64,000 bases of DNA from an uncultured Gemmatimonadota bacterium (lineage in GTDB: Bacteria > JAAXHH01). Both the position numbers and the translations under genes were made by a program. The number at the start of each line of letters is the position of its first letter. The first letter of the stretch is position 1. The notes under the pieces were generated by a model. The model did no database searches. It was not told the origin of the DNA and saw nothing but the letters and a program-made list of their open reading frames with translations. Positions 2,317-53,113 of this stretch are shown one piece after another. Where the stretch lies: positions 1,056,001 through 1,120,000 of the forward strand of contig OX638340.1 in NCBI GenBank assembly GCA_951812955.1. Direction: 5' to 3'.

Positions 2317-5300
2317 TAGTGGCCTCCCTTCATCAGACGCAGATGAATGGTAGAAAGAGCGGGAACGACCATCATGAGTATGGCCGTGACGACGAGGATA
2401 CCGCAACCAAGCGATGCGGCAAAGGGAACCAGGAACTGAGCATGAATAGCGCGTTCCAGAATCAAGGGGGTGAAGCCGAGAAACGTAGTCAGAGAAGTAA
2501 GCATAATCGGACGAAAACGTCCCTTTGCGCCCTCTATGATCGCAGTTCGCGCCGGAGCGCCTTCCCTGAGTTTCTGATCGATGAAAACGATCATGACCAG
2601 TGAATCGTTCACAACCACGCCGCTCAGGCCGAATATACCCATGAAGGAGATTGCGCTCAGGGCTACTCCAAGGGCCCAGTGACCAAGGATCACTCCGATG
2701 AACCCGAACGGGATCACCGCCATGATGATGAACGGTTTGGTATAGGATCGTAAGGGGATGGCGAGCAGCACGAAGATCATGATCAGAGCGATCGCAAATC
2801 CGCGATACAGTGCATCCAGGGAATCGAGTTGTTGTTGTTGCTCACCTCCGAACGTGTAGGTCAGGTCCGGGTACACGGCGGTCAATTCCGCGAGGATTGA
2901 ATCCGCCAGGATGCTATTGGCCTGGTCACCGGAGATCACCGCGGCATCCACGTCCGCAGTGACCGTGACGACACGCTGACCATCCTTCCGCCGAATGGCC
3001 GGCGGCGACACGCCCGTGTTCAGCGCGGCCACACTGACGATCGGGACCTCGGCACCGGCCGGCGTACGGATCAGGTACCTTTCGATATCGGTGATGGAAC
3101 TTCGTTCATCGGCGGGCAGGCGCACGTAGACCCGAACCTCTTCACGGCCGCGCTGCACCCGGACGGCATCCGCACCGAAAAACGCGGCGCGCGTCTGTCC
3201 GGCCAACGCTTCCAGCGTGAGACCCAAAGTCCGCGCTTCCGGCCGGAGTTCAAGCTGTATTTCCGGGATACCCGGGGTGTGATCCGAACGGACATCGTAG
3301 ACGCCTGTCACTCCACGGAGACCATCGACCACCGAGTCCGCAATCCGGGCGAGTCGCACCGGATCCGGATGCGACAGCACGGCCTCGACCGGGTTGCCCA
3401 GGTCGAAGACCTCTCCGCTGAAGGTGACACCGCGCACGTAGGGCAGCACACCCACTTCCTCTCGCCATGCCTGCACAACCTCTCCGGTAGTGATCTGCCT
3501 TTGCTCCGCGCTCAGGAGTTTGAACTCGATGGTTGCAATGTTGGCCTGAGGATTAAGGGTGGGGGCTGGATTAAGCCCACCCTCGAGCCTCGAGCCCTGT
3601 CCGACGGTCACCATTACGCCGGTCAGCAGTGGTGGCGCATCCTCGGGGCGGCCGCGCGAAAGCCGATCGACGACCCGGTAACCTGCGGCCTCCAGTTCCT
3701 GTGCCACCTCGTATGTCCTTGGAGCGGTCGTCCCGTCGGGCATCTCCAGGATGACCGTCGCAAAATCCCCCTCCACGTCAGCAGCCAACGTGGTAGGTAC
3801 GATCCCCGCCGGTACCAGCGAGATACTAAGTACGAGTATTCCAACGGCCCCCCCCAGCGTGACCGCGGGCTGATCCGTCGCGAACCGTAACGCTCGGTCC
3901 AGGGGACCCTGCACGAACCGGTTCAGCGACTCGTTCACACGTCCCTGGATCCGCGCGAAGAACCGGTCGAAAGCACTTGTCGGCGTCCATTCCGGACCGT
4001 GCAAACGGGACAGGTGGTTGGGTAGTACCAGCAGTGATTCGATCAGGGAAACAAACAGTATGGCGATAAGGATGATCGGCAGTGCCCGCCATACGTCACC
4101 GACGCCTCCGGGTATGAACAGCAGCGGGACGAAAGCCACCACCGAAGTAAGGACCGCGAAGGTCAACGGCACTTTTATCCGTCGTACTCCGCGTATCGCA
4201 GCCACGACACCGGGCGTTCCCCGACTGCGTTCATATTGAATGTGCTCGGCTACGACGATGGCGTCATCGACGACAATCCCTATGGCGAGGACGAAAGAGA
4301 ACAGGCTGATGGTGTTAATAGCTACGTCGAGTACCATCATGACGGCCAATGTGCCTATACCCGAAACGGCGAGGCCGACGGCGACCCACAATGCAAGCCG
4401 GATTTCCAGAAACAGGCTGAGTGCGATCAACACCAGCAACAGACCCAGGATGCCATTCTTGACGAGAATATCGGCACGTTCCTCATAGGCTTGGGATTCG
4501 TCATTCCACATGGTGATGTGCACACCGTTCGGCAGAGCCGGGATCACCTCGTTTGCCATATGTTCCCGGACAGTCGTGGCGACGTCCATCACTTGTTCGC
4601 CGTTGGCTCGGTACACCTCGACGAATACAGCGGGATGGTTCTGATGCCGAACAATCAGGTCGGATTCCTGAAAACCATCGCGAACCCTGGCGATATCGCC
4701 AAGGCGCAAGGCAGTGCCGTCACTTCTGCTAAGCAGGATGATCTCTTCGAAATCCTGCTGGTCGTAGTTCTGGCCGAGGGTACGAACCCGCACCTGGGAT
4801 TCCCGGGTATCGATACTGCCGGCAGAAAGGTTCAGGGAACTGCGACGAATGGTATTGGCGACATCGGCGAGTGTCAGTCCAAGGGCTCTCAGCCGATGAA
4901 GCGGCACCTCGATGGAGATCTCGTATTTCCGAACACCACTGACCTCGACCTGGGACACGGACGGAAGCGCCGTGAGTCCATCCTCGATCTGATATGCCGT
5001 TTCCTTCAGCGAGCGTTCGGACACGTCGCCGTAGACGATGAACCGTATCATGCTCATACGGTTGTCCATCTCACGGAAACTGGGACGATCGGCACCGGCC
5101 GGGAAAGACTGGATGCGATTGACCGCGGACTCGATATCGTTGAGCGCCTGGACCATGTCCGTACCGAAATCCATTTGAATCCGCACGGATGCTATACCCG
5201 GGGCCGCTACAGACTTGACCGCCTTCACGTCATCCAACCCGCTGACCTGGTCCTCGATCTTGACGACGATCGACTCCTCGACCTCCTCCGGCGTGGCGCC

Positions 5301-29506: not shown

Positions 29507-30337
29507 ATGGGCCAATGCGTATTCTGTAACCAGCCAGCCGGATTTCTCAGGAAACAGCACAGCGCGTGCAGGGATCGCCACGAATCCGGCAAAAGAGAAA
29601 TCGTCGCGCTGGTCAGCGAAATCGGCACACCGGAACGTGATCTGGCCCGGCTGGAGACGCAGGTCGGAGAAATCGCCGCGGGGTGTTTCGTGGACAACTT
29701 CATGCTGCGCGATCTCGTGGTCAGAGGTTGGGAAAGCGCCGTGGATGTCGCCTTCGAAGACCACGTGATATCGGAGGAAGAAGAACGGCTGCTCGCGGAG
29801 TTGAAGCGCCACTTCGGGCTCTCCGACGAGGTGGTGGACCGGAATGGCGCCCTGAGCAGAATGAGGAAAGGAAAGGTAATCCGGGAACTGCTGGAGGGCA
29901 ACTTCCCGGACCAGTTCGCCACCTCTGGTCCCCTGCCCTTCAATCTGCAAAAGACGGAACAACTCGCCTGGGTGTTCGAGGGCGTCAAATACCACGAGCA
30001 CAAGAAACGCACCGAATATGTCGGCGGTTCCAGCGGGGTGAGCTTCCGCGTCGCGAAAGGCGTCTATTACCGTACGGGAGCGTTCAAGGGGCGCCGGGTC
30101 GAGACCATGGAGCAGGTCCACGTGGATTCCGGCCTCCTCGGCATGACCAGCAAGCATCTCTACTTCGTCGGCGAGCATAAGCGATTCAGGATCCGGTTCG
30201 ACAAGATCATCTCGTTCGAACCGCTGGAAGACGGGATCAGCGTGCAGCGTGACGCCATGACCGCGACGCCGCAGACTTTCATAACCGGTGATGGCTGGTT
30301 TACGTACAACCTCGTCGCGAACCTGGCGCAGATGTAA
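29507..30337 (+). CDS. Hypothetical protein with N-terminal Cys cluster (CVFC...C)
   Basis: 276-aa ORF with no recognised family. Codon usage is consistent with its neighbours. Confidence 0.35.
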   Translation: MGQCVFCNQPAGFLRKQHSACRDRHESGKREIVALVSEIGTPERDLARLETQVGEIAAGCFVDNFMLRDLVVRGWESAVDVAFEDHVISEEEERLLAELKRHFGLSDEVVDRNGALSRMRKGKVIRELLEGNFPDQFATSGPLPFNLQKTEQLAWVFEGVKYHEHKKRTEYVGGSSGVSFRVAKGVYYRTGAFKGRRVETMEQVHVDSGLLGMTSKHLYFVGEHKRFRIRFDKIISFEPLEDGISVQRDAMTATPQTFITGDGWFTYNLVANLAQM

Positions 30338-30369: not shown

Positions 30370-31218
30370 ATGGCGTCGCCTTACGCACATCTGTTGACCG
30401 ATAACGAAAAGTGGCATTTCGACCTTCAGGGATACCTTCACCTGCGCGGCGTGATCGCGCCGGAGCGCCTGGGCCGTATCCTGGAGGTGGTCGATCACTG
30501 GCTGTCCGCCGACGAATACGAGATCCCCGCGCCGGTTTTAAGGCATCGACAGGAGCCCTACAAGACACACCTGGACCACATCCAGTACGGGCACAGGCTG
30601 TTCCAGGAACTGAACGCCGATCCGGAGATCATCCGCGTGGTCGCGGGACTGACCATGGGCATGCCACGGCTGTTTCACTGCAACTTCACGAAAATGGACC
30701 GCGCCGCGCCGGGCGACGCGGACGTTCAGGCCTATCACAGGGATGACAGCGGCTTCAAGTTCCCCCCGGGCTTCAGGAATCCCCACAACGATTACCAGGC
30801 GGCGGGCGGGGAGATCTACTGCAGCCACCTGGCCACGTGGATCGCGCTGGCGGATGTACCGGCGGGCACCGGGTTCAGCCTGGTGCCGGGCAGCCACAAG
30901 TCGGCCTTCGGCACGCCGGACGCACTGAAAGTCGGCGACTATCTGCCCGTATCGATCACCGTGCCCATGGACGCGGGCGACGTCCTCATTTTCTCGACCC
31001 ACTTGTTGCACGATGCCGCGGCCTGGACCCAGGACTATCCCAGGATGAACATCTTCCAGCGCTATCAGTTCAGCGCCTATTTCAACGAAAGCGGCAAAGG
31101 CGGACTGCCCATCGACGAATACCGGGATCAGATCACCGAAGAGGAGTACGAACTGGAATCGCTCAGCAAAGACGAAAAGGCCGCCGTAACCCGGATGCGG
31201 CGTCACTTCGGACTGTAG
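30370..31218 (+). CDS. Phytanoyl-CoA dioxygenase (PhyH) family Fe(II)/2-oxoglutarate-dependent oxygenase
   Basis: PhyH-like N-terminus (WHFDLQGYLHLRGVI) and HxD...H iron triad region (YHRDDSG...H). 282 aa. Confidence 0.7.
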   Translation: MASPYAHLLTDNEKWHFDLQGYLHLRGVIAPERLGRILEVVDHWLSADEYEIPAPVLRHRQEPYKTHLDHIQYGHRLFQELNADPEIIRVVAGLTMGMPRLFHCNFTKMDRAAPGDADVQAYHRDDSGFKFPPGFRNPHNDYQAAGGEIYCSHLATWIALADVPAGTGFSLVPGSHKSAFGTPDALKVGDYLPVSITVPMDAGDVLIFSTHLLHDAAAWTQDYPRMNIFQRYQFSAYFNESGKGGLPIDEYRDQITEEEYELESLSKDEKAAVTRMRRHFGL

Positions 31219-31238
31219 TCAACCCACAGGAGACGGCC

Positions 31239-31802
31239 ATGGCGTGGATACGCACCATTGACGAATCGGAAGCGGAAGGTCAACTGGAAAGAATATACCA
31301 AGGATCGATGCGATCCTGGGGAGGCGTGGACAACATCATCAAGGTCCACAGCCTGAACGTGCAGGCGCTGAGAGCGCTTATGACCTTCTACAAGGGCCTC
31401 ATGCACGGGGACTGCGACCTCACGCTGGGGCAGCGGGAGATGATCGCGACGACCGTCTCGGTTCTGAACGAGTGCGAGTACTGAATCCGCCATCATGGGG
31501 AGGGGCTCCTCAGAGAGATCGACGACAGGGAACTGGTGGATGCGATCAAGAGAGACTACCGCGAAGCGAACCTGGACGACGGCGACCGCGCCATGCTGGA
31601 CTACGTCCGGAAACTCACCCTGGCGCCCGCTTCCACTTCCGAATCGGATATCGAGCAGTTGAGGCAGGCGGGTTTCGGAGACAAGGCGATCCTGGAGATC
31701 AACCAGATCACGGGTTTCTTCGCCTGGTGCAACCGGACGGTGGACGGCCTGGGCGTGGAACTTGAGGCATTCTGGGACGAACCGAACGCGACGAATGTTT
31801 GA
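31239..31802 (+). CDS. Carboxymuconolactone decarboxylase/AhpD-like 'peroxidase-related' protein with an in-frame TGA, putative selenocysteine (CxxU) selenoprotein
   Basis: MAWIRTIDESEAEGQLERIYQ...SVLNECEY-TGA-IRHHGEGLL...GVELEAFWDEP. The TGA at 31482-31484 falls exactly at the second Cys of the family's conserved NxCxYCxxHH redox motif. The two halves (31239-31484 and 31485-31802) are in frame and together give the canonical ~187-aa length. The RBS AGGAGACGG precedes the ATG. Confidence 0.6.
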
Positions 31803-31883
31803 CGGATGTGTAGCTGCGTGGAAACCTGGAAAGTCACGCAGCCGCAATCGATTTTGAATGTAGATCAGCGATTTCGGGGAATA

Positions 31884-32687
31884 ATGAGTACTTTCGAAGT
31901 CATACCGACCGGACGCGCGCTAGGCGCGGAAGTTATAGGCTTGGATCTGCGCCGCGAATTGGACGAGTATACCGTTGGCAGGCTTCGTGCGGCATTCCTC
32001 GATCACTGCGTGCTGTTCTTTCGAGGCCAGGAGATCAGTCAGGCGGATTTGGTCCGGTTCACCCGGTATTTCGGCAACCCGGTTCCCCATGTAAGGCCGC
32101 AGCCGGATCGGCCGATCGAGGAGATCTTCGTCATCTCAAACGTGACCGAGGACGGCAAGCCCATCGGTGCGCTCGGCAGTGAAGGGATTCCTTTCCATTC
32201 CGATTTGTCCTACCTGCCTGAGCCGGGGACTGTTTCGCTGCTGTACGCGCTGGAGATCCCCGACGAAGGGGGCGAAACGATGTGGGCCAACGGATACGCG
32301 GCCTACGAGGCGCTGGACCCCGACATGCAGACCCGTATCAACGGTCTGAGCGCAGTCCATCGCCATCCTATCGACGCGCTGAATACGCCCGAACCTACCA
32401 CGCATCCGGTCGTCCGAACCCATCCGGAAACGGGCCGCGAAGTGATCTACGTCAGCCCTCACCTGACCTATCGTATCACCGGTATGGAACGGGAGGTCGG
32501 CCAGGCCCTGCTGGACGAATTGATCGCCCACGCTACTCACTCGCGATTCGTTTGGAAGCACATTTGGCAAGTAGGCGACCTGGTCATGTGGGACAACCGT
32601 TGCACCATGCACCGCCGCACGCCGTTCGACGACCGACAGCGCCGGGTCATGTGGCGCACGCAGGTGTTCGGGGCGGGTACGGTATAG
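31884..32687 (+). CDS. TauD/TfdA-family Fe(II)/alpha-ketoglutarate-dependent dioxygenase
   Basis: Typical TauD N-terminus (MSTFEVIPTGRALGAEVIGLDL) and HxD...H triad (HSDLSY...H). Start trimmed from the tool's 31806. Confidence 0.8.
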   Translation: MSTFEVIPTGRALGAEVIGLDLRRELDEYTVGRLRAAFLDHCVLFFRGQEISQADLVRFTRYFGNPVPHVRPQPDRPIEEIFVISNVTEDGKPIGALGSEGIPFHSDLSYLPEPGTVSLLYALEIPDEGGETMWANGYAAYEALDPDMQTRINGLSAVHRHPIDALNTPEPTTHPVVRTHPETGREVIYVSPHLTYRITGMEREVGQALLDELIAHATHSRFVWKHIWQVGDLVMWDNRCTMHRRTPFDDRQRRVMWRTQVFGAGTV

Positions 32688-52006: not shown

Positions 52007-53113
52007 ATGCCTGTCCAGGATTACCCGACTTACGCCGGGGTTGGCGTTCGGCCCCTCATCAACTGCAAGGGTACGCTGACCATGTACAGCGGATCGGTCA
52101 TGCTGCCTGAAGTCAGGCGGGCCATGGCCGATGCTTCCGGGAAGTACGTGCATATCGAAGAATTGATGGCCGGCGTGGGCCGGCGTATCGGCGAAATTAT
52201 GAAAACGGAGTTCGGGCTCGTGACCAACGGATGTGCCGCCGCGCTTTGTCAGGTGACCGCCGCGTGCGTGGCGGGAACCGACCTGGACCGAATCGCCAGG
52301 CTGCCGGACACCACGGGAATGAAGAACGAAGTCGTCACGCTCAAGACCCACCGTCACGTATACGATCACGCCATTCGCATGGTAGGGATCTCTCTCGTGG
52401 AGACCGAAGACGATCCAGAGAAATTCAGGTCCGCCTTCAACGAGCAGACGGCCATGGTCGCTATATTCGGCGACCGGGCGGGCGACGGCGCCATGACCGT
52501 GGCCGATATCGTCCATATCGCCCATGATCACGGTGTTCCCGTTCTTGTGGACGCGGCCGCCGAACGCCCGGATGTACCTAATCCATACCTGGCGGACGGC
52601 GTGGACGCCGTTGCATACAGCGGCGGCAAGTGCCTCAGGGGCCCGCAGGCCTCGGGGTTGGTGCTGGGACGGCGCGAACTGCTGTGGGCCGCGTTCGCAA
52701 ACGGCGCGCCGCACCACTCCATCGCGCGCCCGATGAAGGCTGGCAAGGAGGAGATCATGGGACTCCTCGCGGCCGTGGAACAGTGGGTGGCGAGAGATCA
52801 CGAAGCGGAATGGAAGGCATGGGAAGGATATCTTCAGACCATTATTGATGCGGTTGCCCCGCTTCCATCCATACGAACGACGATCAGGCAACCGGGCCGG
52901 TCCAACGTGGCTCCGGTTTTGCATTTGGACTGGGATACATCGAAAATAGGCATCGAACCGGACGAAGTCGCCCGCATGTTGTCTGAAGGAGACCCCCGGA
53001 TCGAAATGGGCGGGGGACGCGGCCTGTCCGTCATGCCCTATATGATGGAATCCGGCGAGGATGCCCTGGTGGCCGCACGGCTCGCAGAGATCCTGGGACC
53101 GCGGGTGCGGTGA
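52007..53113 (+). CDS. SelA-family PLP-dependent enzyme (DgaE/L-seryl-tRNA selenium transferase-related). The ~370-aa length fits DgaE rather than canonical SelA
   Basis: YSGGKCLRGPQASGLVLGRREL matches the SelA/DgaE PLP-lysine block (SGDKLLGGPQAG). RBS GAGGAA precedes ATG 52007. Confidence 0.55.
   Translation: MPVQDYPTYAGVGVRPLINCKGTLTMYSGSVMLPEVRRAMADASGKYVHIEELMAGVGRRIGEIMKTEFGLVTNGCAAALCQVTAACVAGTDLDRIARLPDTTGMKNEVVTLKTHRHVYDHAIRMVGISLVETEDDPEKFRSAFNEQTAMVAIFGDRAGDGAMTVADIVHIAHDHGVPVLVDAAAERPDVPNPYLADGVDAVAYSGGKCLRGPQASGLVLGRRELLWAAFANGAPHHSIARPMKAGKEEIMGLLAAVEQWVARDHEAEWKAWEGYLQTIIDAVAPLPSIRTTIRQPGRSNVAPVLHLDWDTSKIGIEPDEVARMLSEGDPRIEMGGGRGLSVMPYMMESGEDALVAARLAEILGPRVR

Follow-up and report, generated by a model that had tools for sequence, protein, structure and literature searches.

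How is a reading frame to be interpreted when a single TGA interrupts it in the middle of a redox motif? The question is raised by positions 31239 to 31802 of a 64,000-nucleotide stretch of DNA from an uncultured Gemmatimonadota bacterium (contig OX638340.1; the whole stretch is called the window in what follows). Two open reading frames (ORFs), 31239-31484 and 31485-31802, lie there in one frame on the forward strand, and their only separator is the TGA at 31482-31484. The initial annotation of the window had joined them into a protein of 187 residues, and the sequence confirms this: the frame opened by the ATG at 31239 runs through 81 codons, this single internal in-frame TGA and 105 further codons to a terminal TGA at 31800-31802. 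The codons at the site, AAC GAG TGC GAG TAC TGA ATC CGC CAT CAT, read N-E-C-E-Y-[TGA]-I-R-H-H. The explanation favoured here, to which we give a probability of about 0.92, is that 31239-31802 is one gene encoding a 187-residue thiol-selenol oxidoreductase of the AhpD-like type (TIGR01926/COG2128), that UGA 31482-31484 is read as selenocysteine (Sec) and that a hairpin at 31496-31512 is the selenocysteine insertion sequence (SECIS). Three features are needed to follow the argument:

31239..31802, forward strand: complete gene predicted to encode an AhpD-like selenoprotein, 187 codons including that of Sec82, with its own stop TGA at 31800-31802 (from the frame, profile scores and codon-position substitutions).
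31482..31484, forward strand: in-frame TGA, the predicted selenocysteine codon of residue 82, Sec82 (from the TGA/Cys correspondence across loci, homologs and structures).
31496..31512, forward strand: predicted bacterial SECIS hairpin, with a 7-bp stem UGGGGAG/CUCCUCA and the apical loop GGG at 31503-31505 (from folds and comparison across loci).

The TGA stands at a conserved codon. In a genome scan using one genome per species, 80 loci were fetched at 40-98% protein identity, and all 80 have TGA at the aligned codon. Their phylum or class labels are Latescibacterota/Gemmatimonadota, Chloroflexota, Acidimicrobiia, Myxococcota, Calditrichota, Acidobacteriota, Armatimonadota and Planctomycetota. 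In a metagenome scan for which Cys-type proteins served as seed, the aligned codon of the 80 best loci is TGA in 50, TGC or TGT in 29 and AGC in one, and the TGA loci of the genome and metagenome scans amount to 130 in total. At the protein level, 62 of the 120 homologs listed are full-length and have Cys at the aligned position. The same 120 include 34 C-terminal fragments of about 105 residues, 32 of them starting exactly one residue past the TGA, and one N-terminal fragment ending in ...CEY. Another 20 are full-length with Trp (17) or Gly (3) at the site, which is an artefact of gene callers applying genetic code 4 or code 25 contig by contig. The TGA had been placed, in the initial annotation, at the second Cys of a CxxC motif (hence CxxU); this placement is borne out by the 62 Cys homologs, by the 29 TGC/TGT loci and by the closest chains of the Protein Data Bank (PDB), all of which have Cys at the residue aligned with the TGA. 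The possibility, raised beforehand, that homologs normally end at the position of the TGA was also looked at, and they do not end there.

Other residues were occasionally met at the Sec position. Leu (TTA, at about position 1741 of locus L161) and Arg (AGA, locus L163) are both encoded by single-base variants of TGA that keep an intact hairpin; these codons would be either recent inactivating mutations or sequencing errors. Leu and Arg, met in three homologs, had been considered as a third residue class, and the idea was dropped when two of the three, P0002 and P0003, proved to be single-base TGA variants with the hairpin. The third, P0116, has Arg at the position. Concerning abundance, the majority of TGA among the best metagenome loci was obtained despite the Cys-type seeding, a count that hit ranking may bias; Sec forms may outnumber Cys forms of the subfamily in environmental data.

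Conservation extends to the codons that follow the TGA. The window is syntenic with 15 species-level genomes of its own clade, two at about 93% DNA identity and 13 at 80-84%, and TGA is present in 15 of 15. Amino-acid identity after the TGA is 86-98% in clade genomes of only 80-84% DNA identity. When substitutions between the window gene and 30 relatives were counted by codon position (1/2/3), the part before the TGA gave 333/252/877 and the part behind it 500/377/1254; past the real stop the counts are flat (860/857/852). Such a third-position excess on both sides argues that purifying selection acts in frame on the 105 codons past the TGA just as it does on the 81 preceding ones. On the opposite strand, an ORF of 214 residues (31203-31847, reverse strand) spans the whole gene; its recurrence in relatives does no more than mirror the conserved sense frame. 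Outside the clade (loci L015-L032, labelled as Chloroflexota, Acidimicrobiales, Cellvibrionaceae and Myxococcales metagenome-assembled genomes, MAGs), only the gene itself aligns, at 66-77% DNA identity and without flanking synteny. This pattern of alignment suggests that the Sec-type gene may have spread horizontally among marine bacteria.

The hairpin lies within the coding sequence, the last base of the His86 codon being the first base of its stem. Its core, GGGGAG-GGG-CUCCUC at 31497-31511, had been pointed out in the initial annotation as a possible bacterial SECIS (bSECIS), and it is extended by one U-A pair to 31496-31512. The published bSECIS model describes a loop of 3-9 nt, a stem of 4-16 bp, a G in the first two loop positions, a spacing of 16-37 nt and a minimum free energy (MFE) of at most -7.5 kcal/mol (PMC13188914). 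With its 7 bp, its GGG loop, 18 nt from UGA to loop and -8.4 to -9.1 kcal/mol, the hairpin of the window agrees with the model in every respect. Averaged over 81 unique loci, 24-nt segments along the gene have an MFE of about -3.5 kcal/mol, and the deepest point, -8.3 kcal/mol, is reached at starts 9-12 nt past the UGA. Between +9 and +36 (27 nt), TGA forms (n = 125 unique) have a mean of -9.0 kcal/mol, versus -3.9 kcal/mol for Cys/Ser forms (n = 28; Mann-Whitney p = 1.4e-13). Because the Cys/Ser homologs are without comparable stability, the hairpin is specific to TGA forms. In the latter, the stem usually comprises 6-7 bp and begins at a distance of 13-14 nt from the U of UGA, the distance from UGA to the apical loop is 16-19 nt, and a G is found in the first two loop positions in 121 of 125 cases.

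Pairing itself was assessed on 93 TGA forms, picked by peptide motif and not by fold and aligned without gaps in the coding frame, the columns being kept fixed. In the fixed register 85.7% of the cells pair, and sliding the partner by 1-3 columns lowers this to 32-56%. The covariation score (0.188, versus 0.138 in shuffles) and the number of double-sided changes (16, versus 6.1) both lie above 500 of 500 shuffles, and one pair of the stem varies as GC, CG, UA and GU. Within the clade that shares the peptide HHGEGLL with the window, two main codon sets are used, GGG GAG GGN CTC CTC and GGA GAA GGT CTT CTC (6 sequences); the switch between them is wholly synonymous, and the second set forms a perfect hairpin one register over. 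The sole variant in this clade (CTC CTT) converts one pair to G-U and alters nothing else. Furthermore, in the 15 own-clade genomes the third positions of the five hairpin codons never differ from the window (0/75), versus 597/2700 (22%) in the rest of the gene (p ~1e-8, uncorrected for shared ancestry). Agreement with the bSECIS model, specificity for TGA forms, covariation and synonymous constraint all speak for the hairpin that had been singled out. Together, the 125 unique Sec-type and 28 Cys-type sequences illustrate clearly how a SECIS within a coding region constrains synonymous sites.

A second stem, GAUCG...CGAUC at about +36, had also been put forward as a bSECIS. It is present in the window, but it was rejected: it has no conserved stability signal across relatives and is disrupted in L001, which is 93% identical. 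Separately, the bases just past the UGA (AUCCGCCAUC, 31485-31494) can pair with GGUGGAU about 50 nt downstream (~31534-31541), giving a lower stem around the SECIS hairpin. This lower stem is present in the window and in several close relatives; one relative shows an A-U to G-C change, others break the pairing, and the stem is not conserved outside the clade.

To which family does the joined protein belong? For profile searches, the internal TGA (U) was modelled as Cys. The protein then scores 138.4 bits against TIGR01926, 'peroxidase-related enzyme' (NCBIfam; cut-off 81.8), covering profile positions 1-173 of 178, and 41.3 bits against the Pfam CMD domain PF02627 (cut-off 23), which makes it a member of the AhpD/carboxymuconolactone decarboxylase (CMD) superfamily. 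These two scores uphold the earlier assignment to the 'peroxidase-related' subgroup. NF041238 AhpD_rel_CFYUT and NF053654 YciW-related, two sister families of CMD-superfamily selenoproteins with CxxU, do not include it, since it lies far below their cut-offs (44.6 bits against 175 and 31.3 bits against 310, respectively). The closest solved structures found with phmmer are the COG2128 AhpD-like proteins 2pfx, 6k40, 3c1l, 2oyo and 2prr (E 1e-29 to 1e-21). They share with the window protein the subfamily, the fold and the N-x-C-x-Y-C motif, at about 30-36% identity, and have Cys where the window gene has Sec; 6k40 is DR1765 of Deinococcus radiodurans. The fold was taken from the AlphaFold model of P0001, a Sec-type relative 72% identical to the window protein. 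This model is all-helical (pLDDT 94.7), and Foldseek superposes it on 6k40, 2oyo, 3c1l and 2pfx with TM scores of 0.83-0.90, the value for D. radiodurans 6k40 being 0.90. The AhpD proteins of S. pneumoniae and P. aeruginosa are matched at TM 0.65-0.76 (query-normalised), and sestrin is also a distant match.

Across 63 aligned sequences, E67, C79, Y81, C82 (Sec in the window gene), H85 and H86 are invariant. The codons of the putative active site that flank Sec82 are the following:

31437..31439, forward strand: codon of Glu67, the predicted proton-relay residue, equivalent by spacing to Glu118 of M. tuberculosis AhpD (invariant in the 63-sequence alignment; relay roles from PMC3141380).
31473..31475, forward strand: codon TGC of Cys79, first residue of the CxxU redox motif (invariant in the genome loci and in the 63-sequence alignment).
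31491..31496, forward strand: codons of His85 and His86, the latter being the predicted relay histidine, equivalent to His137 (both invariant in the 63-sequence alignment).

The spacing E67-x11-C79-x2-U82-x3-H86 is identical to that of Glu118, Cys130, Cys133 and His137 in M. tuberculosis AhpD, a protein of the same CMD/AhpD helical fold family, with a Cys130-x-x-Cys133 motif and a Glu118/His132/His137 relay. That enzyme is too distant to be matched by phmmer (no match at E<=1), and Tyr in the window protein replaces its His132. It uses its CxxC as a disulfide reductase and returns the peroxiredoxin AhpC to the reduced state (PMC3141380, PMC6626918); its second Cys, Cys133, attacks Cys61 of AhpC, Cys130 is partly buried (PMC6626918), and the roles of its proton-relay residues have been described (PMC3141380). 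Because the motif spacing equals that of this relay, in which Cys133 attacks, Sec82 probably corresponds to the attacking position and not to the resolving Cys. In redox enzymes, Sec is usually found at the attacking position. The label 'resolving' that the initial annotation had attached to the replaced Cys is thus probably wrong.

From these elements, a mechanism may be proposed. The hairpin 31496-31512, inside the coding sequence of the mRNA, would act as a bacterial SECIS and, by analogy with E. coli, would recruit SelB and Sec-tRNA(Sec) to a ribosome paused at the UGA, 18 nt 5' of the G-rich loop. In the product, a helix would begin with the redox centre C79-E-Y-U82, and the conserved residues Glu67, Tyr81 and His86 would form a proton relay. 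Sec82 would be the nucleophile, acting either on an oxidised partner (a peroxiredoxin-type sulfenate or a disulfide) or directly on peroxide, and Cys79 would resolve the resulting selenenylsulfide. The nearest characterised homolog is DR1765 of D. radiodurans (6k40), whose deletion causes sensitivity to H2O2 and whose complementation needs the CxxC motif (PMC8945050). By this analogy, the protein is most likely a selenol/thiol oxidoreductase of peroxide defence, with a physiological substrate that would be of the kinds just named. As to the residue inserted at position 82, we infer that selenium is actually incorporated.

Several observations weigh against the selenoprotein explanation. When the window sequence is folded by itself the hairpin is recovered, but its stability does not exceed that of dinucleotide shuffles (z -0.22 and +0.72), so that the hairpin, whose support by folding had been named beforehand as a point to look at, is supported comparatively though not by the energy of the single sequence. 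Resampling of synonymous codons yields z = -1.96 in the window, the mean over 81 loci being -1.1; this signal is moderate because the HHGEGLL peptide is itself hairpin-prone, which is expected if peptide and SECIS co-evolved. With Rfam, a gathering-threshold search of the whole window and a permissive search of 31400-31620 returned nothing relevant. ARAGORN did not find tRNA-Sec in the 64-kb window and 60 loci, nor was a tRNA of any kind found in the window. Motif scans for SelA, SelB and SelD found nothing in the window, nor in the flanks of related loci (about 1.3 Mb), which is a weak negative. No peroxiredoxin or other redox-partner gene was found to recur beside the Sec-type loci, as judged by adjacency only over independent loci. 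Finally, in B. thailandensis AhpD the first Cys is reported as the more important one (PMC6626918), so that the attacking/resolving assignment is not universal.

Regarding the decoding machinery, the initial annotation had reported no selA, selB, selD or tRNA-Sec in the window, in agreement with the ARAGORN and motif scans, and had described the SelA-family gene at 52007 as DgaE-like, which stands. Indeed, the gene at 52007-53113 (forward strand) encodes a pyridoxal phosphate enzyme of the SelA superfamily and of DgaE type, whose best match is TIGR01437 (167.5 bits, below the cut-off of 385); against the SelA model TIGR00474 it scores 26.3 bits, for a cut-off of 267.9. Its product is unrelated to Sec synthesis. 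Nevertheless, given that UGA, hairpin and an intact downstream half persist across the 15 diverged clade genomes and many phyla, we infer that the genome encodes selA/B/C/D and is able to decode Sec. Reading the locus as one selenoprotein would imply a selenium requirement and a Sec-decoding trait in this sponge- or coral-associated lineage, and predicts the presence of selA/B/C/D.

Other explanations of the TGA have to be weighed against this background. That a nonsense mutation has truncated a Cys-type AhpD-like gene after residue 81, leaving a pseudogene, might be suggested by the public gene callers, which split the locus into products of 81 and 88 residues, and by the non-significant single-sequence fold. 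We consider it highly improbable, given that TGA occupies the same codon in the 80 species-level loci and in 125 unique sequences from many phyla, that the third-position excess (500/377/1254) holds over 105 downstream codons with 86-98% amino-acid identity at 80-84% DNA identity, and that the catalytic His-His past the TGA is invariant; copies of one contaminating sequence are excluded by the divergence of the loci. In a split gene, the TGA would be a true stop, and polypeptides of 81 and about 88-105 residues would assemble non-covalently. The codon right after the TGA is start-capable (ATG or GTG) in 37 of 128 unique TGA forms, and gene callers begin the 105-residue product there. It is non-initiating in the other 91, including the window, which has ATC; the first in-frame start past the TGA in the window is GTG 31536, and initiation there would delete the invariant HHGEGLL. 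The C-x-x-[TGA]-x-x-H-H motif would moreover be cut in its middle with loss of the second redox residue, and the hairpin would be left unexplained, so that two separate polypeptides are scarcely credible. A genome-wide reassignment of TGA to Trp or Gly (genetic codes 4 or 25) would agree with the 17 database homologs with W and the three with G at the position. Its probability is practically negligible: the stops of 49 crudely called window genes are TGA (21), TAG (16) and TAA (12), TGA also ends the AhpD-like gene itself, and no other credible in-frame-TGA gene exists within the 64 kb. Ten further in-frame-TGA candidates of the window were dismissed as adjacent genes, an upstream non-coding stretch or antisense-frame noise.

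Two more possibilities accept translation through the UGA and concern what is inserted or what the protein does. The UGA at 31482 could be read through with a standard residue (Cys, or Trp by near-cognate decoding), by a SelB-like/allo-tRNA route or when selenium is scarce. This would fit with the Sec machinery not having been observed in the window or in the flanks scanned, and the comparative data do show translation through the UGA and a conserved hairpin, not the identity of the inserted residue. On the other hand, the hairpin geometry and the G-rich apical loop fit a SelB-dependent bacterial SECIS, the family is already catalogued as a selenoprotein (PMC1088965, PMC13188914), and Cys forms use TGC/TGT without the hairpin, which leaves no evident reason to keep a costly UGA if Cys were inserted. 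Insertion of a standard residue is therefore very improbable. Very improbable, too, is a role other than peroxide defence, as a selenium-dependent reductive dehalogenase or another small-molecule reductase, like the CMD-fold debrominase Bmp8 or the Sec-dependent deiodinases, in which case the protein might act jointly with the flanking PhyH-like and TauD-like dioxygenases. The sole arguments for this are the local gene order and a distant fold match to the tetrabromopyrrole debrominase Bmp8 (6ohi/6ohj), which shows the same CMD fold (TM 0.74-0.79 to the P0001 model) but only 15-17% identity and a phmmer E-value of 0.31. The occurrence of the Sec-type protein in soil, groundwater and sediment bacteria without conserved neighbours weighs against the dehalogenase proposal.

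The selenoprotein explanation places the gene in a family with a prior record. The 'AhpD-like protein' (COG2128, CxxU) was described in 2005 by Zhang et al. as a new selenoprotein family of the Sargasso Sea, with 27 sequences and a predicted SECIS (PMC1088965). In the Global Ocean Sampling (GOS) data of 2008, it was the fourth most abundant family, with 299 sequences (PMC2398784). In a table of a 2026 review it appears as 'AhpD-like protein, TIGR01926, CxxU' (PMC13188914), and BSepDB devotes a page to it (PMC13326102). The remark in the initial annotation that AhpD-like selenoproteins had been reported before is therefore correct, and the window gene is a true positive of the catalogued family (AhpD-like 1; COG2128/TIGR01926), the biology of which is already known. 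It shares with that family the hidden Markov model, the Sec position at the second Cys of CxxC and a small G-loop SECIS directly downstream; as for the family at large, Cys homologs are widespread. No substantial difference is seen, the window copy coming from a sponge-/coral-associated MAG lineage labelled Latescibacterota/Gemmatimonadetes and being recorded publicly as two fragments. In marine metagenomes, few bacterial selenoprotein families are more abundant than the AhpD-like CxxU proteins. The practical value of the present analysis lies in correcting split gene calls at this locus and in its relatives: among the homologs listed, roughly one in three is a C-terminal fragment, and further entries have the Sec residue mistranslated as Trp or Gly. 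In several MAG chromosomes of about 3.9 Mb (L164-L167), public gene calls give an 81-residue product (3001-3246) and an 88-residue product from an internal GTG (3298-3564).

Neighbouring genes in the window encode PhyH-like and TauD-like proteins, an MBL hydrolase, an adenosine deaminase and an SDR. The predicted selenoprotein gene stands between the PhyH-like gene (30370-31218) and the TauD-like gene (31884-32687), both of Fe(II)/2-oxoglutarate dioxygenase families, on the same strand and with short gaps. This flanking order is kept throughout the sponge-associated clade and not elsewhere. One further element precedes the start codon:

31228..31233, forward strand: Shine-Dalgarno-like AGGAGA, 5 nt 5' of the ATG (read directly from the sequence).

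Judged by gene adjacency only, a canonical AhpC-AhpD system of the M. tuberculosis type is not found here, as no ahpC adjoins the window gene. In the distant relative L161 (GCA_001629575.1), an AhpC-TSA/Redoxin-family gene (2218-2766) follows the AhpD-like gene after about 170 nt; this arrangement is not recurrent, and the encoded protein is a possible redox partner in that lineage. Finally, an ORF of 276 residues (29507-30337, forward strand), without a Pfam match, lies between the SDR and PhyH genes. Its presence in L165 and absence from L164 and L166 make it a small presence/absence polymorphism in the clade.

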